Positions 8,891-64,000 of a stretch of DNA of 64,000 bases are shown one piece after another. The notes beneath the pieces are model-generated. The model saw only the letters and a list, made by a program, of their open reading frames with translations, was not told the DNA's origin and ran no database searches. This stretch comes from a virus (lineage: Duplodnaviria > Caudoviricetes): the IMG/VR virus record IMGVR_UViG_3300021124_000001. One strand, written 5' to 3'. Both the position numbers and the translations under genes were made by a program. Numbering within the stretch: position 1 is the stretch's first letter; each line of letters begins with the position of its first letter.

Positions 8891-9925
8891 ATGAGTATTC
8901 TAGATAAAATTAAAAAGAATAGTAGCATTAAAGATTCTGCTATTCTATCCAAATCCAAATTCTTCACAGATAAGGATATGATTCCAACGGCAGTTCCTGC
9001 CATCAACATTGCTCTCTCAGGTAAACTTGATGGTGGTCTAACTCCAGGTCTTACAATGTGGGCCGGTCCATCAAAACACTTTAAGACAGCATTTTCTTTA
9101 TTGATGGCCAAATCTTACCTGGACAAATATGAAGACGCCGCATTACTTTTTTACGACAGCGAATTTGGAACGCCTCAGTCTTACTTTGATAGTTTCGGTA
9201 TCGATACTGATAGAGTTTTACATACTCCTCTCACTGATATTGAACAATTAAAGTTTGATGTGATGAAACAACTGACCGGATTGGAACGTGGTGAACACCT
9301 CATCATTGTCATTGATTCTATCGGTAACTTGGCATCTAAGAAAGAAGTTGAAGATGCTTTATCTGAGAAGTCTGTGGCCGATATGTCACGAGCAAAACAA
9401 GTCAAGAGTTTGTTCCGTATGGTAACACCACACTTGTCGTTGAAAGATATTCCAATGATTGTTGTGAATCACACATACAAAGAAATTGGCATGTTCCCTA
9501 AAGATATTGTTGGTGGCGGTACAGGTTCATATTACTCTGCTGACAACATTTTCATCTTGGGTCGCCAGCAAGAAAAAGAAGGCACCGAGATTGTCGGTTA
9601 CAATTTTATTATCAACGTAGAAAAGTCTCGTTATGTTAAAGAGAAATCTAAAATACCTGTCTCTGTATCTTTTGACGGTGGCATTAGTAAGTGGTCTGGC
9701 TTACTTGACATTGCCCTTGAATCTGGACACGTTATCAAACCATCAAATGGATGGTATTCTAAAGTGGACAAAACTACTGGTGAAGTAGATGAGAAAAAGT
9801 ATCGCATCAAAGATACTGACACCAAAGAGTTTTGGACTTCTATTGTTGAAGATGAAACGTTCCAACAATACGTATCGGACAAGTATGCCATTGCAACTGG
9901 CGCAATCATGCAGGAAGAAGAATGA
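8891..9925 (+). CDS. uvsX: RecA-like recombinase UvsX
   Basis: AGPSKHFKT, YDSEFG, DSIGNLASKKE. Confidence 0.97.
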   Translation: MSILDKIKKNSSIKDSAILSKSKFFTDKDMIPTAVPAINIALSGKLDGGLTPGLTMWAGPSKHFKTAFSLLMAKSYLDKYEDAALLFYDSEFGTPQSYFDSFGIDTDRVLHTPLTDIEQLKFDVMKQLTGLERGEHLIIVIDSIGNLASKKEVEDALSEKSVADMSRAKQVKSLFRMVTPHLSLKDIPMIVVNHTYKEIGMFPKDIVGGGTGSYYSADNIFILGRQQEKEGTEIVGYNFIINVEKSRYVKEKSKIPVSVSFDGGISKWSGLLDIALESGHVIKPSNGWYSKVDKTTGEVDEKKYRIKDTDTKEFWTSIVEDETFQQYVSDKYAIATGAIMQEEE

Positions 9926-47438: not shown

Positions 47439-47462
47439 TGTATTTTTTATTGATGAGGTAAT

Positions 47463-48501: not shown

Positions 48502-48698
48502 TGAACGAACGAATTAAAGAACTTGCTAAACAAGCAACTGTTCATGGCGATACTGAGCATCACCTGGACATACCGTTATGGTACTTGGAGCAGTTCGCCA
48601 AGTTGATTGTGAAAGAATGTACCAATATTGTGTTACACTATACTGATGTTGATGAAGGTGTAGCAGTGGCCAAGAAACATTTCGGAGTTGAAGAATGA
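48501..48698 (+). CDS. MNERI/KFAELIV/HFGVEE family member 1
   Basis: All three constant blocks. Confidence 0.85.
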   Translation: MNERIKELAKQATVHGDTEHHLDIPLWYLEQFAKLIVKECTNIVLHYTDVDEGVAVAKKHFGVEE

Positions 48699-48988: not shown

Positions 48989-49010
48989 GTATTGAATAAA
49001 GGAATATATT

Positions 49011-49553: not shown

Positions 49554-49563
49554 AAGGAAATAA

Positions 49564-50142: not shown

Positions 50143-50360
50143 ACGAACGAATTGAACAAATTATTGAACAGGCATATTGCGATTTACATAAACAGGATCC
50201 AAATAGATTTTTTGGTGAAAGAACTATTGCTAAAAAAGTAGCCGAGTTGATTGTCCAAGATTGTGCCAATTTTGTGCGTGAAACATATGACCACGAGGCG
50301 GCAGAATCTATCGCATGGACAATGGAGATTAATTATGGTTTACACGGAGATTATGCATGA
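50139..50360 (+). CDS. MNERI/KFAELIV family member 2 (divergent C-terminus)
   Basis: MNERIEQ, KVAELIVQDC. Confidence 0.8.
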   Translation: MNERIEQIIEQAYCDLHKQDPNRFFGERTIAKKVAELIVQDCANFVRETYDHEAAESIAWTMEINYGLHGDYA

Positions 50361-50581: not shown

Positions 50582-50609
50582 TGCCACTTATTCGATTGAT
50601 TAGGACACT

Positions 50610-50858
50610 ATGAGAACCAAGCAAATTGTTCAAGGGCTTAAAAATAGCCAGCGTATACGTGCCATTGTGAATGGTGTTGGATTTTATACAACCGTACAAG
50701 ATGCCCTGGCTGGTCCATTTACTACGCAAACCTCGGCAGTTAATGTTGTATTGCATGAGATTGGTTCAAATAAATTAACTGGTTTTGGTCGAACCGTTAA
50801 AGTTTATAATAGCTATATGGAAGCTGTTAATTTCAACATTCAAATTGATTTGGTTTAA
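50610..50858 (+). CDS. hypothetical protein
   Basis: AGGA RBS after promoter. Confidence 0.75.
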   Translation: MRTKQIVQGLKNSQRIRAIVNGVGFYTTVQDALAGPFTTQTSAVNVVLHEIGSNKLTGFGRTVKVYNSYMEAVNFNIQIDLV

Positions 50859-50868
50859 GGAGATAATC

Positions 50869-51321: not shown

Positions 51322-51416
51322 TGTTGCATAATAATGATTATAATATAAATAGGTGTGTATCGCGTCCTGGCAGGGACCATACACTCTAGCCATCGAAACA
51401 ATAATCAAGGACTATT

Positions 51417-51827
51417 ATGACCAGCACTAATATGTATATACCCCAGTCGGAATGGGATGCAATGTCCCAAGCATTATCTACCATATTCGATGTAGATTAT
51501 GTACCAAGTAACACCGAACCTTATATTGTAACCCCATTATATTCTAATAATTCTGGACATTTCAATCTAGGCATAAAAAGAACGGCCGAACAAAAAAAAG
51601 CTCAAAGTACTAGACAAATAGGAATGAGATATTCCCATTTACGCAATGAAAAAATTGGATTTGCAAATTCTAAAAATTGGTTAATCACTGATCCTATCGG
51701 TATCACATATAGAGTTTTTAATTTAAGGCAATTTTGTCGAGAAAAAAACTTAAATCAATCTAGTATGACTATGGTAGCCAAAGGCAAATTTAAACAACAC
51801 AAGGGTTGGACCTGTCAGAAAATTTGA
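51417..51827 (+). CDS. NUMOD-type DNA-binding protein (paralog of 48064)
   Basis: NLRQFC, KGKFKQHKGWTC; TATAAATA at 51344. Confidence 0.7.
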   Translation: MTSTNMYIPQSEWDAMSQALSTIFDVDYVPSNTEPYIVTPLYSNNSGHFNLGIKRTAEQKKAQSTRQIGMRYSHLRNEKIGFANSKNWLITDPIGITYRVFNLRQFCREKNLNQSSMTMVAKGKFKQHKGWTCQKI

Positions 51828-51828
51828 T

Positions 51829-51890
51829 TGTTGTTTTTAAGCAACACCGTCCCGGATTGTCCTTGACTTAGGTGCCGGCCGTGTTACAAT
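51829..51890 (+). promoter_or_regulatory. palindrome plus sigma70 promoter
   Basis: TGTTG-N8-CAACA 51829-51846; TTGACT at 51863 ... TACAAT. Confidence 0.8.
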
Positions 51891-51922
51891 GGACTCTTAC
51901 TTTGATTGATGAAGGAATTTAA

Positions 51923-52786
51923 ATGTCTGGTATTTTTATGGTTGACGGTAAGTATGCGGCTAATATCAACGGCAAGATTGTAAAACGTGCTAATCGCCGT
52001 GCATTGGAGCGTATGTTAAAAGTAACTGATGCCGTTGTTGCACCCACTGAGTCCAAATTCTCTATTAACCAGCGTTTTGGTTTCGTCCGTGATATGGTTC
52101 AAATGCTTGCAAAAGGCGACCAAGCGTCCGTGGTTGTATCGGGACCTGGTGGTCTCGGTAAGTCACACACCGTATCAGCCGCTTTGACCGATGCCGGCTT
52201 CACTGATCTGTCCGTGCTTGACGAATTGGCTGATGGTGCCGTTGTGCCTGATAAATCTTTCCGTGTTGTTAAAGGTTATTCTACACCAAAAGGTTTATAT
52301 CGTGTTTTGTTTGAGAATCGTAATTCGGTTGTTGTATTTGATGACTGTGATTCGGTGCTCAAAGATCCAGTATCTCTTAACCTATTGAAAGCGGCTCTAG
52401 ATTCATATTCTCGCCGTATTATCTCTTGGCGTGCCGATACTCGTGATGAAGAATTGCCTAATGTGTTTGAATTTAAAGGCCGTGTTGTCTTTATCTCTAA
52501 CCTGTCGTCATCTTCATTGGATCAAGCCATTATCTCACGTTCACTAGCCGTTGACTTGTCTATGACTGCCAAACAAAAGGTTGAACGTATGCGATTCCTG
52601 CTTGACCAAAAAGACTTTATGCCTGAGTATGACAAACAACACAAGGTCGATGCAATGGACCTTATTGCTGAGTTATGCGATAATGTGAAAGAGTTGTCTT
52701 TGCGTACACTGATTCAGGTAACAAAGATTCGTAAATCTGCCGGTGCAAACTGGAAAGATTTGGCTGAATATGCTATTGTTGGTTGA
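51923..52786 (+). CDS. AAA+ ATPase
   Basis: GPGGLGKS, VVFDDCD, LKAALD, FISN, SR. Confidence 0.85.
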   Translation: MSGIFMVDGKYAANINGKIVKRANRRALERMLKVTDAVVAPTESKFSINQRFGFVRDMVQMLAKGDQASVVVSGPGGLGKSHTVSAALTDAGFTDLSVLDELADGAVVPDKSFRVVKGYSTPKGLYRVLFENRNSVVVFDDCDSVLKDPVSLNLLKAALDSYSRRIISWRADTRDEELPNVFEFKGRVVFISNLSSSSLDQAIISRSLAVDLSMTAKQKVERMRFLLDQKDFMPEYDKQHKVDAMDLIAELCDNVKELSLRTLIQVTKIRKSAGANWKDLAEYAIVG

Positions 52787-52804
52787 TTTTTTAAAGGATT
52801 TATT

Positions 52805-53011
52805 ATGTTTGAACAAACTGTAATGCAAAAAATTGGACATTTATTGAAAGAAGGCGAAACTGCTGAATTTCATAATGGTACATTGTTTCTCAATTCAGGC
52901 CGACCAACGGCCAATGATGTTTATATTGAATTGTGTAACATTTATCGTAAACGATTTATAAATTTCAATATTGTTACTGAAGGTGAATATGCGTTTGACT
53001 TTACTGCGTGA
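52805..53011 (+). CDS. hypothetical protein
   Basis: AAGGA RBS. Confidence 0.7.
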   Translation: MFEQTVMQKIGHLLKEGETAEFHNGTLFLNSGRPTANDVYIELCNIYRKRFINFNIVTEGEYAFDFTA

Positions 53012-53222
53012 GACTACAAAGTGGGCCGATGGTTCGGCCACCAACTTCATATATGCCTTTGTGGATAAACCGGGTAAACGGTTAGGTAATGCTGTTGGTT
53101 ATATCAATCACCTATCTGATGAGTATAAGGAATTTAGTAAGCCAATGGTGATTGATATGAAGGATAGGACCTTTGTAGAGGTAGGTAATATCAAATTTGA
53201 ATTGGATACACCTATTCATTGA
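52989..53222 (+). CDS. hypothetical protein
   Basis: AGGTG RBS; LRETTKW. Confidence 0.7.
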   Translation: MRLTLLRETTKWADGSATNFIYAFVDKPGKRLGNAVGYINHLSDEYKEFSKPMVIDMKDRTFVEVGNIKFELDTPIH

Positions 53223-53279
53223 AAGCGGCACACCGCTATCTTATACACCATTTTTAAAATTGTCAAGGTAACTTTTGGT

Positions 53280-53504
53280 ATGAATGAAAAAATTCAAAAA
53301 CTAATGGGTAAGGCTCTAGATAGCGAAATGCGGCGAACCTGGGATACCATGACTTACGGAGACCTATTACAGTTTAGTGAAAAGTTCGCCGAGTTGATTG
53401 TTCGGGAATGTATGTATGTAGGTCGCTTATCTCAGATTAACAACGGCCTTGTTGATTCAGATATCAAAGACCATTTTTACGGAGTTGAAGATGAACGAGA
53501 CTGA
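53280..53504 (+). CDS. family member 3
   Basis: MNEKI, EKFAELIVREC, HFYGVE. Confidence 0.85.
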   Translation: MNEKIQKLMGKALDSEMRRTWDTMTYGDLLQFSEKFAELIVRECMYVGRLSQINNGLVDSDIKDHFYGVEDERD

Positions 53505-53586
53505 AATTAAATTACTAATCGTCGGCACCATTATGCTTGGAGCAGGCATGATGTGGTTGGGCAATATCTTAGGGAGATTAGCATGA
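53491..53586 (+). CDS. 31-aa membrane peptide (cargo)
   Basis: MNETEIKLLIVGTIMLGAGMMWLG...; starts at the GGAG junction. Confidence 0.65.
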   Translation: MNETEIKLLIVGTIMLGAGMMWLGNILGRLA

Positions 53587-53828
53587 GCAAAAGAATGAGA
53601 GAACTTGCCGAACAGGCTGGATTTCAATACATTAAAGATGAAGGCATTGGCTGGGCTGGAAATTACAATGACAGTTTACCCAAGTTCGCCGAGTTGATTG
53701 TTCGGGAATGTATCGGATGTTGTGAACAAGTTATTAGTGATCCTGTTCCTAACTATATTGACACTTGGTTAAATGGTGGTTCGCAATGTATTGACGAAAT
53801 TAAACAACATTTCGGAGTTGAACGATGA
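53583..53828 (+). CDS. family member 4
   Basis: RMRELAEQAG, KFAELIVREC, HFGVER. Confidence 0.85.
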   Translation: MSKRMRELAEQAGFQYIKDEGIGWAGNYNDSLPKFAELIVRECIGCCEQVISDPVPNYIDTWLNGGSQCIDEIKQHFGVER

Positions 53829-54052
53829 AAGTCATTATTGAAAAACCGGATGGATCACCATATCTCACAGTAAGTGATGATAGACTAATGGTGTCTGTTC
53901 AAATGCACGATTGTGTGTGGATAGGTGAGCCAGTAAAGATTCACTTTGACCGCAGAACCATACCAGCACTGATTGATGCGTTAAGCAGATTGAATCGTGG
54001 CGAACTTGACACAACCATTCGCACACACCACTTTAACCAGGATATAGAATGA
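53825..54052 (+). CDS. unrelated cargo ORF
   Basis: ATGA overlaps at both ends. Confidence 0.75.
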   Translation: MKVIIEKPDGSPYLTVSDDRLMVSVQMHDCVWIGEPVKIHFDRRTIPALIDALSRLNRGELDTTIRTHHFNQDIE

Positions 54053-54285
54053 AAAAGATACCAATGTTAGAACGGTTCGCCGCACAAAGTCTTGTTGAAC
54101 ACGATGGTGAGTTGATATTCAGCAAAGAAAAGTTCGCCGAGTTGATTGTGCGTGATACATTAGACCAAGTTGCTGAATTTAGTCGTCTAACAAAGGCATA
54201 TCAAACACAAGGCATTGATCCCGAGATTGATGTTACCCGAGAAGTTTTGAAAAACTATGGGTTTACAAGATTTCCCAGGAGTTGA
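54049..54285 (+). CDS. family member 5
   Basis: EKFAELIVR; followed by GGAGTTGAAGAATGA out of frame. Confidence 0.8.
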   Translation: MKKIPMLERFAAQSLVEHDGELIFSKEKFAELIVRDTLDQVAEFSRLTKAYQTQGIDPEIDVTREVLKNYGFTRFPRS

Positions 54286-54288
54286 AGA

Positions 54289-54516
54289 ATGAACGAACGA
54301 ATTCGAGAACTTGCCGAACAGTCCAGAGAAAAGAAATATGATTACGGTGCTAGAGAAGGTGAAAGTCATTACATTTATGTATTCAATGAAGAAAAGTTCG
54401 CCGAGTTGATTGTCAAGGAATGTCAAACTCGTGTAGAACAATATATCTGTGATTGCGGCGAGATTGGTTCATTGCCTGATGCTGTGATTATGAAACATTT
54501 CGGAGTTGAAGAATGA
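54289..54516 (+). CDS. family member 6
   Basis: All three blocks. Confidence 0.88.
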   Translation: MNERIRELAEQSREKKYDYGAREGESHYIYVFNEEKFAELIVKECQTRVEQYICDCGEIGSLPDAVIMKHFGVEE

Positions 54517-54785
54517 TTGATTACTTCCAAGCACTTAAAGAAATGCACCAGGGCAATGTGGTCAAATATGTGGGCACAGTAAATGGTAATGTGATGAGCG
54601 ATAATGGTGCCAGTTTTTGTATGTGTCGTGGTTGTATCTTTCGATTCGACGATGGAGTAATCAAGTGGAACAAGTTGGGATATATGGTTTACGATCCAGA
54701 CTACCGTTATGAACTAACAGGTGAAACTGTGGATCCAAGGGCATGGAAACCAGAAGAGACAAAAAAGCAAAAGGATAAAGAATGA
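54513..54785 (+). CDS. unrelated cargo ORF
   Basis: ATGA overlaps at both ends. Confidence 0.75.
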   Translation: MIDYFQALKEMHQGNVVKYVGTVNGNVMSDNGASFCMCRGCIFRFDDGVIKWNKLGYMVYDPDYRYELTGETVDPRAWKPEETKKQKDKE

Positions 54786-55186
54786 AAGACGATGATGTAA
54801 GAAAAGAGATTAGGCGTATAATGGAAAATCGTAAACACTATTCAAACACAAATAACCCTATTGATTTTCCAAAAATACAGGCAGGCGCTGATATCCATGC
54901 AGGTGATGGTGGTTATAGTATAGGCACACAAGAAAAGTATGAGGAGTTCGCTAAGGCTCGCAATAAGTCATTAGCCAACGCAAGAATTAGAGAACTTGCT
55001 GAACAGGCTGGATCAACCCATAAACAAAATCTCGGAGTATATCAATTTTATACAGATGAATTGGAAAAGTTCGCCGAGTTGATTGTTCAGGAATGTATCG
55101 AGGTCGTGGGAGACTGTTCCGATCAATTTGCTACACGGTCGCAGATTACTGAAGAAATTAAAGAACATTTCGGAGTTGAAGAATGA
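54782..55186 (+). CDS. family member 7, fused to a ~65-aa N-terminal extension
   Basis: Internal NARIRELAEQAG, EKFAELIVQEC, HFGVEE. Confidence 0.85.
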   Translation: MKDDDVRKEIRRIMENRKHYSNTNNPIDFPKIQAGADIHAGDGGYSIGTQEKYEEFAKARNKSLANARIRELAEQAGSTHKQNLGVYQFYTDELEKFAELIVQECIEVVGDCSDQFATRSQITEEIKEHFGVEE

Positions 55187-55590
55187 AATCATATAATGCA
55201 GTAAACGATTTACACATGGCCATGGCTCACGCTATTTACGAGGGCTTTCCTGAATATGAATACGAAAGCCGTGATTTCAACAACCCGGATAGAAATGCCC
55301 GAGTGGTTAAAAAAACACGCCACACCGAATACAATCTAACAGTCAAGGCCATGTTTCCTCAAGTCTGGAGTTCAACTGCGCTGGGCTTTGGTGGCATTGG
55401 TGGACAGGCTATTACTACCGCATATACCACGGTGGTAGAAAGCGACATTGACTCAAGTTGTTGTGTGTATTTTGGTGGACAATTTGCTTACCGTATTGAA
55501 CGACCTAATACTCAATTCTTTGAGGACCTGTCCAAACAACAAATGACCAAGGTGTCGGAAGCAAAGAAAAGATATGAACGAACGAATTGA
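55183..55590 (+). CDS. unrelated cargo ORF
   Basis: FPQ.WSSTALGFGGIGGQAIT. Confidence 0.8.
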   Translation: MKSYNAVNDLHMAMAHAIYEGFPEYEYESRDFNNPDRNARVVKKTRHTEYNLTVKAMFPQVWSSTALGFGGIGGQAITTAYTTVVESDIDSSCCVYFGGQFAYRIERPNTQFFEDLSKQQMTKVSEAKKRYERTN

Positions 55591-55867
55591 AAAACTTGTC
55601 GAACAGGCTACTATTAAAACTTCTCATCGGTATATTACTTGGGGAAATACGGTTGCTACTCAGTCCGAAGAAGTCTTTGACAAGGAAAAGTTCGCCGAGT
55701 TGATTGTTCGGGAATGTGCTAAAATTTGTATTGAACAGAATGTATCCAACCTTGATTTAGATGTTATTCGTGAGTCTGGCAAATTTACTTTACAGGATCT
55801 TGCTACCAAATCGTGTGGTGAGAATTTGTCTAAACAGATTAGGAAACATTTCGGAGTTGAAGAATGA
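55574..55867 (+). CDS. family member 8
   Basis: All three blocks, longer inserts. Confidence 0.88.
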   Translation: MNERIEKLVEQATIKTSHRYITWGNTVATQSEEVFDKEKFAELIVRECAKICIEQNVSNLDLDVIRESGKFTLQDLATKSCGENLSKQIRKHFGVEE

Positions 55868-55959
55868 ACTATTTTATTGTTGGGCTGGTCATTGGACTTA
55901 TTCCAGGTATGTGTGTAGCGGCTAATTATCATTACAAAAAATGGAGAAATTCTAAATGA
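55864..55959 (+). CDS. 31-aa membrane peptide (cargo)
   Basis: MNYFIVGLVIGLIPGMCVAANY...; ATGA overlaps at both ends. Confidence 0.65.
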   Translation: MNYFIVGLVIGLIPGMCVAANYHYKKWRNSK

Positions 55960-56186
55960 ACGAACTAATCAATAACTTAAGGCTTGATGCTGGAATAGCA
56001 CAACTCAAAGATGATCCACGATTAGTGGTAATTGATCGTGAAGGCAATGTGATTGATCCATTGATTGGGTTAGAAAAGTTCGCTGAGTTGCTTGTTCGAG
56101 AATGTGCTAATATTGCCACGATAAATCAATATCAATCCTACACTCCTGGTCATTATATTTTGAATCATTTCGGAGTTGAAGAATGA
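55956..56186 (+). CDS. family member 9
   Basis: MNELI, EKFAELLVREC, HFGVEE. Confidence 0.85.
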   Translation: MNELINNLRLDAGIAQLKDDPRLVVIDREGNVIDPLIGLEKFAELLVRECANIATINQYQSYTPGHYILNHFGVEE

Positions 56187-56308
56187 ACGAAGACGAACGA
56201 GCAGGTTGGTGGGCTGTTGTATGCCTATTGATGGTTGGTGCGGCCGCCTACTTTACGATTTTTATGATCGTTTTCAGTTTGTTAAAACATTTTTTCGGAG
56301 TTGAATGA
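56183..56308 (+). CDS. 41-aa TM peptide framed by the family's first and last blocks
   Basis: MNEDER-[TM]-KHFFGVE. Confidence 0.7.
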   Translation: MNEDERAGWWAVVCLLMVGAAAYFTIFMIVFSLLKHFFGVE

Positions 56309-56454
56309 TGGACGCATTTGATTTTATATGGAATGCAGACCAAGAATCCAAAATCAATCAACTTGAAAAACGTATTGAACAGTTGGAAAAACAGAATGAA
56401 GTCCTATGTGAATGTATTTTATATTTCAAACAAAAATTAGGAGTTGAAGAATGA
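56305..56454 (+). CDS. 49-aa coiled-coil peptide ending in the junction block
   Basis: ...KQKLGVEE*. Confidence 0.7.
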   Translation: MMDAFDFIWNADQESKINQLEKRIEQLEKQNEVLCECILYFKQKLGVEE

Positions 56455-56918
56455 AACCTAAATTGTATATGTTAATTGGTGTACCCGGTTCTGGTAAGAC
56501 CACATGGATTTCCAAACAAGAATGGGCCAAAGATTGTTGTATCGTATCAACCGACAAATATGTTGAAGAATATGCCATGATGCAGGGCAAAACATATTCT
56601 GAAGTATTCCAAGAGTTTATGCCCACGGCTGTAGAGTTGATGACTGATAATGTTAGACTCGCAAGGGAAGATAACCAAGATGTTATTTGGGATCAAACCT
56701 CAACCACAGTATCAACCAGACGGAAAAAGTTTGCATTGTTGCCTGACCATTATGCCATTGCAGTAGTATTCCGTACACCGAGCCGTGATGAATTGGATGT
56801 CCGACTATCTGGACGCCCAGGCAAACACATTCCTAAAGAAGTGGTTGATTCTATGATTGCAAAGTGGGAAGAACCAACCGAAGATGAGGGCTTCAGTGAA
56901 ATTTGGTACGTCAATTAA
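56451..56918 (+). CDS. P-loop kinase (polynucleotide-kinase/AAA_33-like)
   Basis: GVPGSGKTT, STD, DQT, R...R, IP..V. Confidence 0.88.
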   Translation: MKPKLYMLIGVPGSGKTTWISKQEWAKDCCIVSTDKYVEEYAMMQGKTYSEVFQEFMPTAVELMTDNVRLAREDNQDVIWDQTSTTVSTRRKKFALLPDHYAIAVVFRTPSRDELDVRLSGRPGKHIPKEVVDSMIAKWEEPTEDEGFSEIWYVN

Positions 56919-56975
56919 GCCCTTGACAAATGCCACAAAGTGGTATACAATGGTCACACAAACTAAGGAGTTCCA

Positions 56976-57143
56976 ATGGGTAAGATGAAAGAAGTTGTTG
57001 ATAGAATCTTGGACTTGGTTCAAAATGATTATGATGATGAGGCCATTGCATTGATTGTTGGTGTGGACATCACAATTGTTGAACAAGTCAAACGCAATTC
57101 TGGTCTTTATGAAGAACCAAAAGACATAATTGAAAAATACTAA
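56976..57143 (+). CDS. small hypothetical protein
   Basis: TTGACA promoter at 56923, AAGGAG RBS, MGKMKE. Confidence 0.65.
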   Translation: MGKMKEVVDRILDLVQNDYDDEAIALIVGVDITIVEQVKRNSGLYEEPKDIIEKY

Positions 57144-57158
57144 TTTATGGAAATCGCA

Positions 57159-58298
57159 ATGAACAAAAATCAAAAAGCATTTATCTCTGCATCTGAGCGT
57201 AAACATGGCCGTGGTGCCACATTGACTCGTGACCAGATCAACGACATTGTTGAAGAAACTGGTTTGTCATTCCCATTCTGGTTGACCACAAAGTCTGAAT
57301 ATCGTGCTGGCCGTGGGCAGTATGAAGTGCCTACATTGGGCAATACACCTGTCGAGGTAGAATCTCCTGAGTTGGCTACTGTTGACCTTGCACAAGTTAT
57401 GGTTCTGCGCCAGCCTAAACTGAAAGATGAATCTGATACCTCTATCCCTGAAAAGTACCCTGATTATGTCCCTTTTGGATTTTTTAAAGATTTACGGAAC
57501 ATTGTTAAATCCTCTCTATTTTATCCTGTGTTTATTACTGGTCTTTCTGGTAATGGTAAAACCCTCATGGTTGAACAAGTTTGTGCCGAACTCCAAAGAG
57601 AGTGCATCCGTGTCAATATTAGTATCGAAACTGACGAAAGCGATTTGTTGGGTGGTCCTACTCTTGTCAATGGCAACGTTGTTAACCGTGATGGTCCTGT
57701 CATTATCGCTATGAAGCGTGGTGCCATTCTATTGATTGACGAAGTTGACCGTGGTTCTAATAAACTAATGTGCTTGCAAGGTATTCTTGAGGGTAAGCCA
57801 TACTACAACAAGAAATCTGGTGAGTTGGTGCATCCTGCTCCTGGCTTCAACATCATTGCTACTGCTAACACTAAAGGCCGTGGTTCTGATGAGGGCAAGT
57901 ATCTATCTCAGATTCTTGATGATGCATTCTTGGAACGTTTCCCTATTACTGTAGAACAGGAATATCCTGACAGCAGAACAGAGACTAAGATTCTTACACC
58001 ATTGATTAAGGACGAAGACTTTGTTAAGTGCCTTGTTATGTGGGCTGAAGTGGTCCGTAAGTCATTCGATGAAGATGCAACCGATGAAGTTATCTCTACT
58101 CGCCGTTTGGTGCATATTGCAAAAGCATATGAAATCTTTGGTGAACGTATGAAGGCTATCAAATTGTGTGTGAATCGTTTCGATGAAGAAACCAAGACTG
58201 CATTCCTTGACCTGTATACAAAAGTTGATGCAAAGATCAATGCACCTGAAGCGCCTGCTGTTCCAACGCCAAAAGTTGATGAAGAAATTCCATTTTAA
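57159..58298 (+). CDS. CobS/MoxR-like AAA+ ATPase
   Basis: GLSGNGKT, LLIDEVD, TANTKGRG, AFLERF, ISTRRL. Confidence 0.9.
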   Translation: MNKNQKAFISASERKHGRGATLTRDQINDIVEETGLSFPFWLTTKSEYRAGRGQYEVPTLGNTPVEVESPELATVDLAQVMVLRQPKLKDESDTSIPEKYPDYVPFGFFKDLRNIVKSSLFYPVFITGLSGNGKTLMVEQVCAELQRECIRVNISIETDESDLLGGPTLVNGNVVNRDGPVIIAMKRGAILLIDEVDRGSNKLMCLQGILEGKPYYNKKSGELVHPAPGFNIIATANTKGRGSDEGKYLSQILDDAFLERFPITVEQEYPDSRTETKILTPLIKDEDFVKCLVMWAEVVRKSFDEDATDEVISTRRLVHIAKAYEIFGERMKAIKLCVNRFDEETKTAFLDLYTKVDAKINAPEAPAVPTPKVDEEIPF

Positions 58299-58308
58299 GG
58301 AGTGAGTT

Positions 58309-58656
58309 ATGATTAAGAAAATTCGTACAGGCAAACAAAATCGTCATGAAAAAATTACTGTTGCTTTGTTATCGGGTAAGCCAGTGGCTCCTGATGATAT
58401 TAAAGCGTTGTTTAAGGGCACTGACCAAGAAGCCGTGTTGTACCGACTGAGTACAAACATCTATAATATTCGGCGTGATGGTGGTATCATACGTGTTCAA
58501 AAAAATGGGCGAGCGGTATCATCCTATCAATTGATGAACCCACAAGATTTCAATGCCGATGGCCGTTTTGTTGGTCGTAAATCAGCCGAATCAGTAAATA
58601 AAACTGTTGAAGTTAATCCAACAGAAATCATTGTAGATGAATTGGAAACAGTATGA
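58309..58656 (+). CDS. hypothetical protein, possible winged HTH
   Basis: RLSTNIYNIRRDG.II...Y.L pattern. Confidence 0.6.
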   Translation: MIKKIRTGKQNRHEKITVALLSGKPVAPDDIKALFKGTDQEAVLYRLSTNIYNIRRDGGIIRVQKNGRAVSSYQLMNPQDFNADGRFVGRKSAESVNKTVEVNPTEIIVDELETV

Positions 58657-58856
58657 ACGAAAAAGGTATAGTGATTCCTTATGAAGTGGCTGATGGTATT
58701 ATTTTGGCTGGTTTGATTGACCAACGTGCATACCTCACTGAAGAATTGCGAGCAAATGAGGAAGAACTCTCGTGGTTGCATCCTGAAGATATTGTCCGTA
58801 ACAAGAAACTTATCAAGGCATTGACAAAGATTATCCATTACTATGGAGGTGAATGA
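58653..58856 (+). CDS. hypothetical protein
   Basis: ATGA coupling. Confidence 0.7.
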   Translation: MNEKGIVIPYEVADGIILAGLIDQRAYLTEELRANEEELSWLHPEDIVRNKKLIKALTKIIHYYGGE

Positions 58857-59030
58857 TGAGTTCACTTGATGCTTTGAGAATTGTTTTTGGTCTTTCTTGT
58901 TTTATTGGTGCAACTGTCGGTTTGTATAATCAAGAATGGATGATGTCTTGTGCTTACTCTTTGTTCTATATTGCATTTGAGTTTGGTAATAAGATAGAAG
59001 AATAAATATTAAATTTGATGGTGAACAACA

Positions 59031-59252
59031 ATGAAAGAACGTATTAAAGAAATTGCGTTGCAGGCTGGTGGTAGCCATTACCCTGATGTTGGTGGCGATC
59101 TATTACAGAAGTTTGCAGACCTATTGATTGATGAATGTATTAGAGCAATACAAGAAACACCTAATCATCATTGCTACACTAGTTTTGATATTGCACAATC
59201 TGATGGTACTAAGGCTGAATGTATTGAACACATTAAAAAAATTCTAATGTAA
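59031..59252 (+). CDS. divergent family member 10
   Basis: MKERIKEIALQAG, QKFADLLIDEC; DNA blocks diverged. Confidence 0.75.
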   Translation: MKERIKEIALQAGGSHYPDVGGDLLQKFADLLIDECIRAIQETPNHHCYTSFDIAQSDGTKAECIEHIKKILM

Positions 59253-59261
59253 GGAAATTAA

Positions 59262-59522
59262 ATGGATCGATTAACAGAACACGACTTACGTAATGTTAGA
59301 TTTTTGATGTCATTGGGTAGTATTGGTCTGATGAGATTCATGCAACAAGCCAGCGAAGATGATATTCGTTATGCGAATGAGATTATGAGAATGTATAAAA
59401 GGGAAATGGAAGAGGCAGGCAGTAGGTTCACAGAAGATTCGTTCCTATCCCACAATCACAATGAGATTGAAGATTTTAGTGATGCAAAGTTGGTTCTGAA
59501 AAAGTTTATGTTAAACAAGTGA
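59262..59522 (+). CDS. hypothetical protein
   Basis: AAGGA RBS. Confidence 0.75.
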   Translation: MDRLTEHDLRNVRFLMSLGSIGLMRFMQQASEDDIRYANEIMRMYKREMEEAGSRFTEDSFLSHNHNEIEDFSDAKLVLKKFMLNK

Positions 59523-59537
59523 TACGGAGATTATATT

Positions 59538-59855
59538 ATGACTGCAAGTGAAATTAAATTAGAATCTGATAAAGTAACGGCGGAGTTGTTTGCTGATGAA
59601 GTGGCCCGCCAATGGCTTAAGAGTTGCCTGAACACCTCTATTTGCACTATCACCTTCACCAAGAAAAATGGTGATGAGCGTGTTATGAAGTGCACACTGG
59701 ACGAACAACATTTCCCACCAATCCAAAAAGAAGCCGCAGAGGTCGGTGAAGTTCGTCAGAAATCCAAGGACGCCCTGGCCGTTTTTGACATCGAGGCTCA
59801 AGCATGGCGTTCATTCCGTTGGGATTCCATCAAACGATTTGAAATGGCGCTATGA
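59538..59855 (+). CDS. WYL_2/SH3-fold (DUF2693-like) protein
   Basis: FTKKNG.ER.M.CT, VFD.E...WRSFR. Confidence 0.85.
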   Translation: MTASEIKLESDKVTAELFADEVARQWLKSCLNTSICTITFTKKNGDERVMKCTLDEQHFPPIQKEAAEVGEVRQKSKDALAVFDIEAQAWRSFRWDSIKRFEMAL

Positions 59856-60002
59856 AAGATACCCTTGACATTGCACTGGTACTGTGTTACAATCTAGCCA
59901 TACTTGCCGGCACTGCATACCTTGTGGAATTCCACAATTGGTCAGGCTGGTGGTTCCTTATGACACTCTGCTTCATGGTAAGCATTAAAACGGACGATTA
60001 AA

Positions 60003-60836
60003 ATGAAATTTGCACTATGCTCAGACCTCCATTTGGAGTTTGAAACACTTGAATTGAACAACACCGAAGGTGCTGATGTATTGGTGCTGTCCGGTGATAT
60101 TTGCCTTGCTAAAGATTTGTGGCATAAAAATACTGAGCGCAGTGAAATCTGGATGAAATTCTTTACTCATTGCTCTGAACAATTCAAAGATGTGATTTAC
60201 ATTATGGGTAACCATGAGCATTATCATGGTGACTTTGCTAAATCATATAATCAATTAAAAGAAGCATTGGCTGAACTGCCTAACATTCATGTGATGGAAA
60301 AAGAATTCATTCACATTGGTGATGTGACCTTTATCGCAGGTACTCTTTGGACTGATATGAACAAAGAAGACCCTAGTACCTTGTTTGGTATCAAGGGTTA
60401 CATGAATGATTATCGTATCATTGAAGACTCTGCACGTCCTGTTCACTTCCGTGATTCTGATGGTAACTTCCACACTCGCACATCTAAGTTTAGTCCTGAA
60501 CAGTCTGTTGAAGAACACAAGGCCATGTTGAAAGTGATTGATGAAGTCACTAAAGATAATGTCACTGGAAAGTTTGTGGTTGTTGGACATCATGCACCAT
60601 CTAAAATGTCCACTAAGCCAAAATATCAAGGTGATGTAATGGTCAATGGTGCATATAGTTCCGACTTGTCAGACTTTATCTTGGATCGTCCTATGATTAA
60701 AGTATGGACTCATGGCCATACACATGATACGTTCGATTATATGATTGGTTCCACTCGTATTGTTTGCCGGCCGAGAGGATATGCAAACTATGAAGATGTT
60801 GCCGATACTTTTAAATTGCAGTATATTGAGGTTTGA
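60003..60836 (+). CDS. calcineurin-like metallophosphoesterase
   Basis: SDLH, GD, GNHE, HHAP, HGHTH. Confidence 0.93.
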   Translation: MKFALCSDLHLEFETLELNNTEGADVLVLSGDICLAKDLWHKNTERSEIWMKFFTHCSEQFKDVIYIMGNHEHYHGDFAKSYNQLKEALAELPNIHVMEKEFIHIGDVTFIAGTLWTDMNKEDPSTLFGIKGYMNDYRIIEDSARPVHFRDSDGNFHTRTSKFSPEQSVEEHKAMLKVIDEVTKDNVTGKFVVVGHHAPSKMSTKPKYQGDVMVNGAYSSDLSDFILDRPMIKVWTHGHTHDTFDYMIGSTRIVCRPRGYANYEDVADTFKLQYIEV

Positions 60837-60837
60837 T

Positions 60838-61272
60838 ATGGCCATCGAAAAAGCCAAACCATCTCGTGAAGAAATCAAGGAAAATGCTCAACTTCAAATG
60901 GAAGAAGACATTGCCAATTGGAAAAAACTATACAATGAACATATCGATAAAGATATGTTGGATGAAGATGGTTATCCGACAGATGATGCATTGATTATTA
61001 TTGAGAATTGGTATTGGAATGATCCAAAAGGTTGGTTTGAGTTTATCAAATCACTTTGGCATCTGAGTTCATGGGGTTGGGGTGAGGGTGAAGAACCACA
61101 CGACTGGCGGAAAGATGAAATGTGTTATCGCTATCACATCTCCACTGCCGGTTGGTCTGGCAATGAAGCAATCATACATGCAATGCAAAAGAATGATTGG
61201 ATGTGGCATCTTAATTGGGTACAATCACGCCGTGGTGGCCACTATATTTTTGAATTGAAAGAAATTACATGA
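60838..61272 (+). CDS. Trp-rich hypothetical protein
   Basis: STAGWSGNE, RGGHY. Confidence 0.8.
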   Translation: MAIEKAKPSREEIKENAQLQMEEDIANWKKLYNEHIDKDMLDEDGYPTDDALIIIENWYWNDPKGWFEFIKSLWHLSSWGWGEGEEPHDWRKDEMCYRYHISTAGWSGNEAIIHAMQKNDWMWHLNWVQSRRGGHYIFELKEIT

Positions 61273-61970
61273 AAGTCTACATCTCAAACTATCGTAATCA
61301 TTGGTTAAGCCCATACACTATTCTAAAGAATGTGTGTTTTTGGGAAAAAGATCATGACGTATTCTATGACCTTGAAGAAAAAGGTAGCAAGTATACCAAA
61401 TGGGTAAACTTTCTTAATCCAATTTGCCAAGCATGGCAGAAGTTCTTAGACATCGTGCACCCAAGAATCAATTATGTGAAGATTGACAACTACGACACAT
61501 GGAACATGGACGGCACATTGACACCAATCATTCTACCGATGTTGAAGCAATTGAAGGCAACTAAACATGGTTCTGCTCCTGTTGATATGGAAGATGTTCC
61601 AGAATCAATGAGAACGATTGACCATGAAGAATATGAAGATCAAAAATCTTTTGACTTCTACCATGATCCAGATTTACAAAAGGTTCAATGTGATATTCAC
61701 GACCGTTGGGATTGGGTCTTGGATGAAATGATTTTTGCGTTCGAACACCTTGCTGATGATTCATGGCAAGATGCTTACCGTAGTGGTGTTATGGATTGGG
61801 GAAGCAAAGCGTGTGAATGGAACGAAAATGGCAAAGCAACCATGTTCCAAATGGTTGAAGGTCCAAACCATACATATAAATGTGACTATGATGGAATGAA
61901 AGTAGTTGAAGACCGTATTAATAATGGTTTGAGACTTTTTGGCCGGTATTTTAGAGGATTGTGGGACTAA
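61269..61970 (+). CDS. phage hypothetical protein
   Basis: DTWNMD.TL, W..VLDEMIFAF, GL.LFG.Y..LWD. Confidence 0.85.
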   Translation: MKVYISNYRNHWLSPYTILKNVCFWEKDHDVFYDLEEKGSKYTKWVNFLNPICQAWQKFLDIVHPRINYVKIDNYDTWNMDGTLTPIILPMLKQLKATKHGSAPVDMEDVPESMRTIDHEEYEDQKSFDFYHDPDLQKVQCDIHDRWDWVLDEMIFAFEHLADDSWQDAYRSGVMDWGSKACEWNENGKATMFQMVEGPNHTYKCDYDGMKVVEDRINNGLRLFGRYFRGLWD

Positions 61971-61971
61971 T

Positions 61972-62190
61972 ATGAACGAACGAATTAAAGAACTTGCTAT
62001 AGAGGCTGGGATGATTGTAGGTGAGGCAAATGGATTTGACATGACACGGTTGATGCCCAGAGAAGTAAAGTTCGCCGAGTTGATTGTGAAGGAATGTGTG
62101 GGCATTTACAACAAACTTGATAATGGTAATCAACATCTTGGCACTGACGATTACTTGGAAGCATTACAAAAACATTTCGGAGTAAAGTAA
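61972..62190 (+). CDS. family member 11
   Basis: MNERIKELA, KFAELIVKEC (exact 20-mer at 62068), HFGVK. Confidence 0.88.
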   Translation: MNERIKELAIEAGMIVGEANGFDMTRLMPREVKFAELIVKECVGIYNKLDNGNQHLGTDDYLEALQKHFGVK

Positions 62191-62387
62191 TGAATGCCGA
62201 ACGAGTTACAAACAAGAGATTAAACCGTAATGGATGGTACTGGGCAGTAAAGTTTGCTGACCCAGCGGATGCTGATGACCTAATCGCAACTTTGCCATTG
62301 GGCACAAAAGGATACTACCGGGCCAAGGGGCATACTGCTCGACCACATTGGGTTTTAGTTAAAAATACTTTCGGAGTTGAAGAATGA
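62190..62387 (+). CDS. cargo ORF ending in the junction block
   Basis: ...NTFGVEE*, TTTCGGAGTTGAAGAATGA. Confidence 0.75.
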   Translation: MNAERVTNKRLNRNGWYWAVKFADPADADDLIATLPLGTKGYYRAKGHTARPHWVLVKNTFGVEE

Positions 62388-62605
62388 AATCTCTCTTTAA
62401 ACAAACAAAGGTTGTGTATGATGCACACATGCAAGAATATGTTGTATTCTATAAGAATTGGTTGTTTTGGAAACATGAATGGACATATAAAGTATCTGAG
62501 TATCTTCCTGATGAAAGAGCAAAAGAACTTGCTGTAACCAGAGCAAAGAATATGTTAGATACCGTTGAAGTGTATCGTAGTCCCAAACCAGTATATTATT
62601 GTTAA
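62384..62605 (+). CDS. hypothetical protein
   Basis: Starts within the junction. Confidence 0.75.
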   Translation: MKSLFKQTKVVYDAHMQEYVVFYKNWLFWKHEWTYKVSEYLPDERAKELAVTRAKNMLDTVEVYRSPKPVYYC

Positions 62606-62614
62606 GGATAAAAA

Positions 62615-63019
62615 ATGATTGAATGTCTAGTAATCGGTGACTCTATTGCCGTAGGTACTCACATGATGAGGCCCGAATGTGTTGCATATGCACAGACAGG
62701 TATCACCTCACATGGATGGAACAAAAAGTTCGGCAATAAAGACCTGTCCGCAAATACCGTTATCATTAGCCTAAGCACAAATGACTTGACAAGTGCAGAC
62801 ACATATGGTACACTGATGAACATTCGCACCAAAATCTTAGGTAACCCTAAAGTATTTTGGATTGAACCTAATCGTGAATCGAGGTTTGAGGCTGTTCAAA
62901 TTGTTCGCCGTGTTGCACATGAATTTGGTGATACTGTTTTAGTCAACACCAAATGGGCAAGAGACCACATTCATCCAACGACAACAGGTTATAGGGAACT
63001 TGCAAATAGCACAAAATGA
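62615..63019 (+). CDS. minimal SGNH/GDSL hydrolase
   Basis: GDSIA, STND, DHIHP...GY. Confidence 0.85.
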   Translation: MIECLVIGDSIAVGTHMMRPECVAYAQTGITSHGWNKKFGNKDLSANTVIISLSTNDLTSADTYGTLMNIRTKILGNPKVFWIEPNRESRFEAVQIVRRVAHEFGDTVLVNTKWARDHIHPTTTGYRELANSTK

Positions 63020-63151
63020 CTGACCAGCAATTAGAAGAAATTGGCCGTGATTTAGTAAAGATGTTTGGTGACTCTTTACCTAATCCTGAACAAGAACCAA
63101 TCAGGTTCAAATACTACATAAACTTGTTATTCTATATGAAAAGGAACGGCT

Positions 63152-63406
63152 ATGAGTAAAGAAGAAGATCGTATTAAGCATTCTAAACGCCTGCATCAAG
63201 AAGAAACAGCAATCAAACATAACATGAAGGTTGCTAAAGCACATGGTGTTCCTGTTGACCAATATGAATCACATCGTTATGCTAAAGTCAATGCAGTTAA
63301 CTGTGGTGATCCAAAATGTGTATTGTGTATGAATCCTCGTAAGTCAATGGGTGAGAAAACAATTCAAGAACAACGATTTGAACAATCAGGATTATATGAT
63401 GAGTGA
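63152..63406 (+). CDS. hypothetical protein with Cys motif
   Basis: CGDPKCVLC.NPRK. Confidence 0.75.
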   Translation: MSKEEDRIKHSKRLHQEETAIKHNMKVAKAHGVPVDQYESHRYAKVNAVNCGDPKCVLCMNPRKSMGEKTIQEQRFEQSGLYDE

Positions 63407-63599
63407 GGTTGACAAACCCGATTGTGGTTGTTATAATTGTATGCACAAGAAGAAGGACAAGAATGGTTGGCCACTAACCATGTCTATCTTCATTGTGTGT
63501 CCTAATTGTGGCAATAAACGTTGCCCTAAGGCAACAGACCACACATTAGAATGTACAAATAGTAATGAACCAGGACAAAAAGGAAGTCGTTATGGGTGA
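63396..63599 (+). CDS. Cys-rich zinc-finger-like protein
   Basis: C.C..C, CP.CGNKRCP.A..H...C. Confidence 0.75.
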   Translation: MMSEVDKPDCGCYNCMHKKKDKNGWPLTMSIFIVCPNCGNKRCPKATDHTLECTNSNEPGQKGSRYG

Positions 63600-63616
63600 A
63601 AATAAGGTGACTGAAA

Positions 63617-64000
63617 TTGAGAAAAAACTTTGAATATTACAAACGTGATTACTGGTCATTCGGTATTGCTGTACGTAATCCTTATGAACGTGAGCACCAT
63701 GAAAAGCCTTATTGCACATTTAATATTTGTTTGTTCAAGCATTCATGGTGGTGGAAAATTCCTGAGTTGTTCAAACCAAAAGAAAAGTGGATTGATACAA
63801 CCAATATGTCATGGAACAAAGACAAAGAAGGTCCATGTGGATTCATGGAAGAGATTCGTAAAGAATACGGATTCACATTTACACCTGATGGACTACACAC
63901 CTATTATGGTATTCAACCAGGTAATTGGACTCGTGATGATCCAGAAAATTCAGACCATTCAAAATTATTCAGTTATCCATGGCGCCTAGAGATTGTACGT
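63617..64000 (+). CDS. hypothetical protein, truncated by window end (TTG start)
   Basis: AAGGTG RBS; open frame MRKNFEYYKRDYWSFG... to the edge. Confidence 0.65.
   Translation, partial: MRKNFEYYKRDYWSFGIAVRNPYEREHHEKPYCTFNICLFKHSWWWKIPELFKPKEKWIDTTNMSWNKDKEGPCGFMEEIRKEYGFTFTPDGLHTYYGIQPGNWTRDDPENSDHSKLFSYPWRLEIVR

Follow-up and report, generated by a model that had tools for sequence, protein, structure and literature searches.

A 20-base coding block with fixed silent positions in a mosaic gene family of uncultured phages

Introduction

In Botstein's modular theory and in the work on promoter-early stem-loop (PeSL) cassettes, short conserved 'linker' DNA was proposed to guide the exchange of genes between phages; clear and quantifiable cases are few, and the known ones are intergenic or limited to tail-fibre genes. 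In T4-type phages, a PeSL cassette consists of an intergenic sigma-70 promoter with a terminator hairpin (Arbiol et al. 2010, PMC2839356; Comeau et al. 2014, PMC4122927). Such cassettes recur as short conserved motifs through the hyperplastic regions of T4-like genomes, form homologous exchange points between otherwise unrelated sequences and were proposed as linkers in Botstein's sense. Inside coding sequence, strictly conserved short motifs alternate with hypervariable segments (GRM/HVS) in the gp38 adhesin of T-even phages, where exchanges within or near the motifs produce chimeric proteins, and conserved-motif exchanges are also described for gp37 (Trojet et al. 2011, PMC3157838, citing Tetart 1996, 1998). 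Less than 50 bp of homology suffices for T4-type recombination, with the PeSL and gp38 motifs as exchange points (PMC2839356, PMC4122927, PMC3157838). The Type I hsdS genes have two variable target-recognition domains, each with a DNA repeat on either side (repeat – domain 1 – repeat – domain 2 – repeat), and through recombination at these repeats the domains pass from one allele or locus to another ('DOMO'; Furuta et al. 2011, PMC3077401).

The DNA analysed here, a stretch of 64,000 nucleotides referred to as the window, derives from an uncultured T4-like freshwater phage and carries a family of small genes in which the constant blocks A, B and C enclose the variable segments V1 and V2. The system is a variant of motif-mediated modular shuffling as in PeSL and gp38 GRM/HVS: mosaic gene pairs and break-point profiles place exchange points between unrelated flanks, as in the former, and conserved motifs are combined with swapped hypervariable segments, as in the latter. 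Whereas PeSL junctions are intergenic, those observed here are coding (A, B) or contain a Shine-Dalgarno site and start (C), the shuffled unit is as small as a 60-80-nt gene part, and one junction is common to T4-likes and 350-kb jumbo phages. Unlike gp38, the protein is an unrelated, ~75-aa, non-structural one without Pfam, PHROG or PDB match, the family occurs in up to 12 copies per locus, and silent-site invariance was measured over hundreds of contigs. The hsdS layout is shared, but there both flanks are the same repeat and a domain can switch between positions 1 and 2, whereas A, B and C differ here. Mini-cassette gene conversion also operates in bacterial antigenic variation, at pilE/pilS of Neisseria; short DNA-conserved segments among variable mini-cassettes and segmental conversion from a large repertoire are the points of likeness, whereas no division into expression locus and silent copies is seen here, every copy having an open frame with start codon and Shine-Dalgarno site, and the repertoire is spread over many phage genomes.

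Several described kinds of element were rejected as an identity for the locus. A PeSL regulatory cassette was rejected because no promoter or terminator signal is present (a scan of 52800-56600 gave such sites at or below shuffled expectation) and the 20-mer lies in coding DNA, in frame; a gp38-type adhesin, because homology and tail-fibre context are lacking (Pfam, PHROG; tblastn, 50,697 phage records); hsdS-type domain movement, because no pair of genes has a V1 sequence in the V2 position (0 pairs); and a diversity-generating retroelement target, because V1 (30-123 nt) and V2 (42-159 nt) have no fixed length, their types are unalignable and shared cassettes differ mainly at synonymous sites.

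Distribution of the 20-mer in the window

The 20-mer AAGTTCGCCGAGTTGATTGT of block B was detected in seven exact copies in the window, on the + strand only, and in none of 100 shuffled sequences. All block B copies are in frame, each within a small ORF of one paralog family, of which an HMM search recovered 11 members in the window. The first-pass annotation had located the seven exact copies correctly and had rightly noted that the identity between the copies at 53382 and 53682 extends over 32 nt; its near copies at 48591 and 56076 were confirmed, whereas the one placed at 50237 begins at 50235. The features are as follows.

6338-8881, gp43-type DNA polymerase gene, adjoining the UvsX-like gene
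8891..9925, + strand, UvsX-like recombinase gene, adjoining the gp43-type DNA polymerase
48591..48610, + strand, block B near copy with 2 mismatches (one non-synonymous), family gene 48480-48698
50235..50254, + strand, block B near copy with 3 mismatches, family gene 50139-50360
53382..53401, + strand, exact block B 20-mer, family gene 53280-53504
53682..53701, + strand, exact block B 20-mer, family gene 53583-53828 (ORF open from GTG 53553)
53825..54052, + strand, unrelated cargo gene between family members, start overlapping the upstream stop (ATGA)
54130..54149, + strand, exact block B 20-mer, family gene 54049-54285
54262..54325, + strand, C-A junction: GGAG Shine-Dalgarno, ATGA stop/start overlap, then block A of the next gene
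54394..54413, + strand, exact block B 20-mer, family gene 54289-54516
54513..54785, + strand, cargo gene, ATGA-coupled to block C of the 54289 gene
55067..55086, + strand, exact block B 20-mer, gene 54782-55186
55183..55590, + strand, cargo gene, ATGA-coupled to block C of the 54782 gene
55688..55707, + strand, exact block B 20-mer, family gene 55574-55867
56076..56095, + strand, block B near copy with 2 mismatches, family gene 55956-56186
59109..59128, + strand, decayed block B (AAGTTTGCAGACCTATTGAT), solitary family gene 59031-59252
62068..62087, + strand, exact block B 20-mer, family gene 61972-62190

Given the window's own codon usage, KFAELI is written with these six codons at p = 0.0014 per peptide, and the same spelling in 7 of 9 such copies has a P of about 4e-19, which bears out the earlier claim that the synonymous positions are fixed. 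Rearrangement scars in the window are located at the blocks: the gene 54782-55186 is a family member in its C-terminal half and has an unrelated N-terminal part of 72 aa, the two being fused at block A, and the DNA of the C-A junction is retained despite a different reading frame in the 54049 gene. The gene 59031-59252 keeps the related peptide KFADLLI, has lost the DNA of block B, as befits the internal control for which it had been taken, and is also without block C.

Structure of the gene family

The family gene follows the plan A (MNERI..ELAEQA) – V1 – B (KFAELIVREC) – V2 – C (HFGVEE*), with block A written as ATGAACGAACGAATT..GAACTT and block C as CATTTCGGAGTTGAAGAATGA. Blocks A and C are fixed as DNA to the same degree as block B, so the DNA fixation described in the first-pass annotation stands for block B but is not special to it; that annotation had overlooked the like behaviour of A and C and the spread over many phages. 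Among 408 unique genes, 370 V1 types and 365 V2 types were observed. In the confident structural model (pLDDT 88), block B maps to the long helix 2, within its buried N-terminal portion, V1 is predicted to form a beta-hairpin, and V2 would comprise the end of helix 2 plus helix 3; on this model, the block B peptide is certainly constrained. Block C certainly acts as a functional RNA signal as well, with a GGAG Shine-Dalgarno site and an ATGA-coupled start, and the signal is kept even where the block is read out of frame. The shared V segments exhibit a pS of 0.148 and a pN of 0.020, and because pN/pS is 0.14, the V segments are real coding sequence under purifying selection.

The family comprises 10,795 clusters at 50% identity and is unnamed in Pfam and PHROGs, its genes sitting among small non-structural genes. 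The protein had no PDB sequence match and no PDB fold match at E 0.001 or better; its relatives in BFVD and Atlas are solely 'uncultured Caudovirales'. Searches of cultured phages with megablast, blastn and tblastn were negative, and tblastn of the family against 50,697 phage records likewise gave no match.

Silent-site conservation across phages

A degenerate peptide pattern, blind to synonymous sites, was used for the homolog search in IMG/VR, and 156 KFAELIV sites were found in 80 protein-seeded contigs, with 85 of the 156 carrying the exact 20-mer. The codons at these sites are AAG in 92%, TTC in 81%, GCC in 88%, GAG in 90%, TTG in 90% and ATT in 97%, against background frequencies of 20–61% for the same six codons, whereas the Val wobble right after the block is free (GTG 42%, GTT 41%, GTC 9%, GTA 8%). 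Fixation is therefore at the nucleotide level, and free synonymous variation in homologs, which had been named beforehand as the outcome contrary to the first-pass annotation, was checked for and not seen (codons at 81–97%); its proposal that constraint or homogenisation acts on the nucleotides is supported by these pattern-found homologs. The Ala codon of the block is GCC in 87% and GCG in under 1%. Across 484 unique genes, Glu is GAG at 0.92 in column 39, but five further conserved Glu columns have GAA at no less than 0.92; Leu is spelled CTT in column 8 but as TTG in column 40, and Lys is AAG at 0.89 in column 36 and AAA at 0.83-0.93 in columns 6 and 72, where 40-47% of the genes have Lys.

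The carriers are very different uncultured phages, and the silent positions of the 20-mer are held across them: the DNA polymerase of complete jumbo carrier contigs of 355-374 kb is 30-37% identical to that of the window, and that of a 166-kb T4-like carrier contig 50%. In total 256 exact 20-mers were detected in 199 loci, 255 of them in frame and the remaining one at a locus edge, and none of these copies was found outside family genes or out of frame. The wobble variants of the block are mostly G>A and C>T, that is, towards the genome's preferred codons, and therefore something opposes mutation pressure at the block. Variants of the 20-mer cluster weakly within loci, by which intragenomic concerted evolution was ruled out as the main force.

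Mosaic genes and break points

V1 and V2 assort independently. In a set of 408 unique full genes, a near-identical V1 alone is common to 48 pairs and a near-identical V2 alone to 46, and 3 pairs share both. In worked examples a single gene consists of the V1 of a second gene and the V2 of a third. The V2 of the 53583-53828 gene recurs in contig L142, joined there to the V1 of the 54049 gene; the latter V1 also matches contig L004, and the V2 of the 54049 gene is 91% aa identical to a gene of the 374-kb jumbo contig L152. Breaks are located at block edges, where identity tracts end: the mismatch rate rises sharply right after nt 20 of block B, and likewise at the block A ATG and the block C stop, and 40/44 and 42/44 pairs have unrelated flanks outside the blocks. 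A population variant from the same lake series (L212) has its break inside the 54130 20-mer, being identical from this 20-mer onward and different in V1 and the upstream gene. The 'recombination site' option of the first-pass annotation is directly supported by these mosaics, whereas its 'protein-binding site' and 'RNA-processing site' options obtained no support.

Directly after the 3' end of the 20-mer, the tetranucleotide at positions 21-24 is hypervariable and shows no linkage to either V1 or V2. The differences between shared cassettes are mostly synonymous, with about 15% synonymous divergence. The silent-site difference in V-sharing pairs is 0.09 in block B and 0.105 in V, a slower change of the block that is not significant; since the two are alike, direct purifying selection on the block is not demonstrated.

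Discussion

The blocks probably represent homology anchors for recombination that shuffles coding mini-cassettes of 60–80 nt, the same exchange also homogenising the blocks. The 20-mer would be the core of a constant DNA junction (block B) in a very large phage gene family, in which homologous recombination between copies, whether paralogs within one genome or genes of co-infecting phages, could cross over in the constant blocks only, so that V1 and V2 would assort independently as mini-cassettes, as would the genes between family members. The machinery is probably general phage recombination, such as the UvsX system encoded in the window, which could use short homologies. These exchanges would homogenise the blocks throughout the phage gene pool, and a copy whose block has drifted would lose its partners and drop out, of which the 59031 gene appears to be an example. 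The force holding the silent sites is likely to be recombination with homogenisation, or selection for exchangeability. The low divergence ceiling (about 0.2) could stem from homogenisation alone, and we read the non-significant rate test of block against V as exchange of block variants rather than as an absent holding force. As a caveat to the anchor reading, 20 bases are short for efficient homologous recombination. Block-confined recombination is expected of any conserved block and by itself leaves the conservation of silent sites unexplained. The unlinked positions 21-24 need repeated exchanges on both sides, including within the 6-7-nt GGAATGT, or a special junction process.

A different and unlikely explanation takes the 20-mer as a sequence-specific cis-element read as DNA or RNA, either a nuclease or recombinase recognition or cleavage site that starts exchange, or an mRNA binding or processing site; selection on that function would maintain the silent sites, and block recombination would follow as a consequence. 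It accords with silent sites maintained despite AT-biased mutation pressure, with the RNA signal in block C and with the tetranucleotide, which varies free of its flanks as a cut-and-repair junction might. The locus was also compared with integron-like site-specific recombination cassettes and with homing-endonuclease targets. Within about 2.5 kb around the arrays of about 199 loci, the commonest neighbour is a small GIY-YIG nuclease gene, not an integrase; it is present in 29 of these loci and mostly lies directly upstream of the first array member. But no neighbour family occurs in >15% of loci, no single recombinase or nuclease linked to the arrays was found at this distance, and the window itself lacks the GIY-YIG gene. 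Against an element acting through pairing, reverse-complement matches of at least 12 nt are absent from the window, as are any with up to 3 mismatches, and in 150 folded genes block B has no consistent partner, the best pairing being a weak A-C one (mean probability 0.24). Rfam families are absent from 46000-64000, promoter-like and terminator-like sites are not enriched, and the confinement of the 20-mer to family genes, in frame, also speaks against a cis-element. It is doubtful, more so than the cis-element itself, that the blocks are signals of a dedicated diversification process common to unrelated freshwater phages, in which a nuclease, for example the GIY-YIG protein at the array head, would start exchange next to the 20-mer and leave the tetranucleotide as a junction scar; if true, such a process would generate combinatorial repertoires of small effectors and be a phage counterpart of antigenic-variation mini-cassette systems.

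That protein conservation together with codon-level selection (on how fast or how accurately translation proceeds, or for pausing at rare codons) or recent descent accounts for the block, the DNA itself being irrelevant, is very improbable and largely refuted. The constrained peptide in the buried part of helix 2 and the use of the rarer, G/C-ending codons agree with it, but one codon dominates residues of 4- to 6-fold degeneracy where any rare codon should serve, the adjoining Val wobble is free, and codon bias or translational selection is excluded by the opposite codons taken by the same amino acid at different conserved columns. As for descent, homologous V cassettes have diverged at synonymous sites, and vertical descent would have saturated silent sites because the carriers' DNA polymerases are 30-50% identical. 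All mosaic evidence, like the other comparison data, comes from short-read metagenome contigs, some of which begin or end near a block (such as L213), and the mosaics might then be assembly chimeras formed at repeated blocks, with the within-genome repeat alone being real. This is highly unlikely, as the exact repeat is 20 nt and at most about 32, the window's array was recovered at 99.4-100% identity in six independent JGI and ENA assemblies, the shared cassettes differ mainly synonymously, like diverged real genes, and silent-site fixation is independent of the mosaics. Repeats of 20-32 nt are shorter than the final k-mers with which the usual assemblers work, and much shorter than the reads.

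Under the homology-anchor explanation, the linker is a 20-base coding stretch in carriers whose DNA polymerases have only about one residue in three in common, and the units of exchange, at 60-80 bases, are cassettes smaller than a gene. The family offers a natural system for measuring the minimum homology of phage recombination and for testing whether exchangeability itself can maintain synonymous sites. It also raises the question of what a small hypervariable protein with two surfaces does during infection, where the variable segments may be binding surfaces in some host-phage arms race. In the window, HNH-like fragments at 48004-48501 and 51417-51827 lie near the two most diverged copies.

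The 20-mer and its gene family

All seven exact copies of AAGTTCGCCGAGTTGATTGT listed in the first-pass annotation were recovered on the + strand of the window (starts at 53382, 53682, 54130, 54394, 55067, 55688 and 62068), with zero matches in shuffled sequence, and three near copies were located at 48591, 50235 and 56076. Every copy lies in frame within a small ORF and is read AAG TTC GCC GAG TTG ATT GT., and a family HMM built from these ORFs identified 11 members in the window, the remainder not rising above noise. The members share one layout, namely block A (MNERIxELAEQA), V1, block B (KFAELIVREC), V2 and block C (HFGVEE and the stop codon). Under the codon usage of the window, one KFAELI peptide would use exactly these codons with p = 0.0014, and 7 of 9 copies would do so with P ~4e-19, while the solitary member at 59031 has, as previously described, retained a related peptide and lost the DNA identity of the 20-mer.

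The codon alignment indicated that blocks A and C are also fixed as DNA, so that fixation is not peculiar to block B. Block C (CATTTCGGAGTTGAAGAATGA) includes both a Shine-Dalgarno site, GGAG, and an ATGA in which the stop codon overlaps the start of the following gene, and in adjacent members it passes directly into block A (ATGAACGAACGAATT). At 54262-54300 the C/A junction DNA (GGAGTTGAAGAATGAACGAACGAATT) is intact though the 54049 gene reads another frame there, ending ..GFTRFPRS*, and the junction at this site is conserved at the DNA rather than the peptide level. A 41-aa ORF at 56183-56308, after the 55956 member, opens with the initial 9 nt of block A (ATGAACGAA) and diverges thereafter (MNEDERAGWW..); block A may serve more generally as a start module.

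Silent sites in other phages

The exact 20-mer was detected in more than 119 IMG/VR contigs, a set biased by design, and the search was therefore repeated with the degenerate, codon-blind peptide pattern KFA[EK]L[IL]V[RKQ], which returned 80 contigs with 156 distinct KFAELIV sites, 85 of them carrying the exact 20-mer. The silent sites of block B are not free in these homologs: AAG is used at 92%, TTC at 81%, GCC at 88%, GAG at 90%, TTG at 90% and ATT at 97% of the 156 sites, against backgrounds of 0.27, 0.20, 0.20, 0.20, 0.27 and 0.61, respectively, in the non-conserved columns of 484 unique family genes, whereas the wobble position of the Val codon directly after these six codons varies freely (GTG 42%, GTT 41%, GTC 9%, GTA 8%). 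The earlier proposal that constraint or homogenisation acts on the nucleotides is thereby supported.

Codon choice was also observed to be position-specific. Glu is encoded by GAG at column 39 (0.92) and by GAA at five other conserved Glu columns (at least 0.92), Lys by AAG at column 36 (0.89) and by AAA at columns 6 and 72 (0.83-0.93), where Lys is the commonest residue, in 40-47% of genes, and Leu by CTT at column 8 and TTG at column 40. Since the same residue takes opposite codons by column, codon bias, translational accuracy and a preference for any rare codon are ruled out. G>A and C>T changes towards the preferred codons of the genome account for nearly all minor variants at the wobble sites of the block, indicating that some force opposes mutation pressure. 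Vertical descent cannot explain the retained silent sites either, as carriers of exact copies are too distant; these include complete genomes of 355 kb and 374 kb, the latter with 11 copies in three clusters, whose DNA polymerases are 30-37% identical to that of the window, and a 166-kb T4-like genome (50%). No occurrence of the 20-mer was found in another frame or beyond the family, and it is therefore no general genomic signal.

Independent assortment of the variable segments

Among 408 unique full-length genes, from which 80 exact duplicates had first been taken out, 48 pairs share a near-identical V1 with unrelated V2, 46 pairs share V2 with different V1, and both segments are common to only 3 pairs; the two variable segments assort independently. 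In total 370 V1 types and 365 V2 types were distinguished, and a V1 sequence was never seen in the V2 position. One gene of the comparison locus L020 has block A and V1 100% identical to a gene of locus L003 and a V2 identical at 41/42 to a different L003 gene. In a gene of locus L142, V1 corresponds to that of the window's 54049 gene and V2 to that of the window's 53583 gene, with many third-position differences in both halves and an identical 20-mer and block C, and the V2 of the 54049 gene reappears in the 374-kb jumbo contig. Differences between shared V segments are mostly synonymous (pS 0.148, pN 0.020, ratio 0.14), indicating that the segments are genuine coding sequence under purifying selection and not junk spacers.

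The identity tracts end at the block edges. Exactly after nt 20, the mismatch rate of V1-sharing pairs leaps from ~0-0.2 to ~0.6, and that of V2-sharing pairs drops to ~0 from nt 25 on. On the outer sides, identity starts with the ATG that opens block A and ends with the stop codon that closes block C, and 40/44 and 42/44 pairs have unrelated flanks outside the blocks. Constant DNA thus delimits every V segment as a cassette of its own. Positions 21-24 (Val wobble and codon 43) vary independently of V1 as well as of V2, which repeated exchange on both sides or heteroduplex repair across the patch would explain, and a cut-and-repair junction equally well.

Individual break points were also observed. 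L212, a 1.3-kb contig from a sister sample of the same lake series, matches the window at 99.9% identity from the 54130 20-mer onward, while L212:1-275 has a different V1, a different upstream family gene and a TTT variant in its block, placing the break inside that 20-mer; contig L213 begins 6 nt before the same 20-mer. Both suggest that the population is heterogeneous at the block, or that the assembly branches there. The final residues of the 53280 gene are GVEDERD*, and its last 30 nt (53475-53504), which resemble a C-A junction minus 1 nt read through in frame, may be a scar left by the deletion of a member downstream. At 54782-55186, a 134-aa fusion gene consists of 72 unrelated N-terminal residues and, joined to them at block A (..ANARIRELAEQAG), a complete family member.

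Maintenance of the blocks

Block divergence has a low ceiling (~0.2) across the whole family, in which V segments are unalignable, and this ceiling is compatible with pool-wide homogenisation, loss of non-exchangeable copies, GC-biased repair or a specific cis-function. The best explanation, which we consider probable, is that the 20-mer is a recombination junction and a homogenised homology anchor. Direct purifying selection on the block cannot be claimed, because in V-sharing pairs silent-site differences are about equally frequent in the block and in V (0.09 vs 0.105). That the 20-mer is instead a sequence-specific cis-element appears unlikely, although such a function would fit the ceiling: the window holds no complementary partner, RNA pairing of block B is not consistent, no Rfam family was found, promoters and terminators are not enriched, and no universally linked enzyme was found. 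The commonest array neighbour is a ~110-aa GIY-YIG domain protein, absent from the window and present at 29 of ~199 loci, almost always directly upstream of the first member; several copies end ..NTFGVK, similar to block C. Examples in comparison loci are:

L114:186-521, GIY-YIG gene
L138:1886-2297, GIY-YIG gene
L165:2492-2846, GIY-YIG gene

The preferred reading, a junction and anchor for exchange, is a mechanism of known kind, in which homologous exchange in T4-type phages proceeds through short conserved DNA linkers. PeSL elements are exchange linkers between genes, in work that cites a homology need of <50 bp (PMC2839356, PMC4122927), conserved motifs serve as linkers within the gp37 and gp38 adhesin genes (PMC3157838), and the layout of the family genes, repeat-variable-repeat-variable-repeat, is also that of the hsdS genes of restriction systems (PMC3077401). 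The family is a member of none of these, and differs from them in that its junctions are coding, its cassettes are sub-genic in size, its silent-site invariance is quantified here over hundreds of contigs and its junction is common to T4-like and jumbo phages. No paper with its peptide or DNA motifs was found in the literature.

Phage context

Among the genes of the window are those for a gp43-type DNA polymerase ~51% identical to cyanomyovirus polymerases, a UvsX-like recombinase, a DnaB/gp41-like helicase, a primase, a ribonucleotide reductase and eight tRNAs. Its array was recovered at 99.4-100% identity in six independent assemblies and is thus no artefact of a single assembly; one matching record is named TB03JUN2009E, a name indicative of the Trout Bog lake time series. 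Cultured phages gave no match to the array at the DNA or protein level. These features identify the window as an uncultured T4-like freshwater phage. The tRNA cluster (671-2076) includes tRNA-Leu(CAA) and tRNA-Phe(GAA), readers of the TTG and TTC codons of the block, probably by coincidence. ORFs 48004-48501 and 51417-51827 match HNH/homing-endonuclease PHROGs (phrog_2081, phrog_314) in the C-terminal part only, and the former overlaps the start of a family gene with a diverged block B.

The predicted protein

The family comprises 10,795 representatives at 50% identity (E <=0.001); its relatives are viral hypothetical proteins in every case, it belongs to no Pfam or PHROG family, and solved structures gave neither a sequence nor a fold match. 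In the AlphaFold model, which is confident (77 members, pLDDT 88), block A is predicted to form helix 1, V1 a beta-hairpin, block B the beginning of a long helix 2, and the end of V2 with block C helix 3. A constant scaffold with two independently exchangeable variable elements, as modelled, suggests what may be a binding protein in an arms race. Cys45 of block B is near-invariant, and several members have one to three further Cys in V2, which in the family alignment hints at a possible disulfide or metal site:

53583-53828, family member with extra V2 Cys
54289-54516, family member with extra V2 Cys
55574-55867, family member with extra V2 Cys
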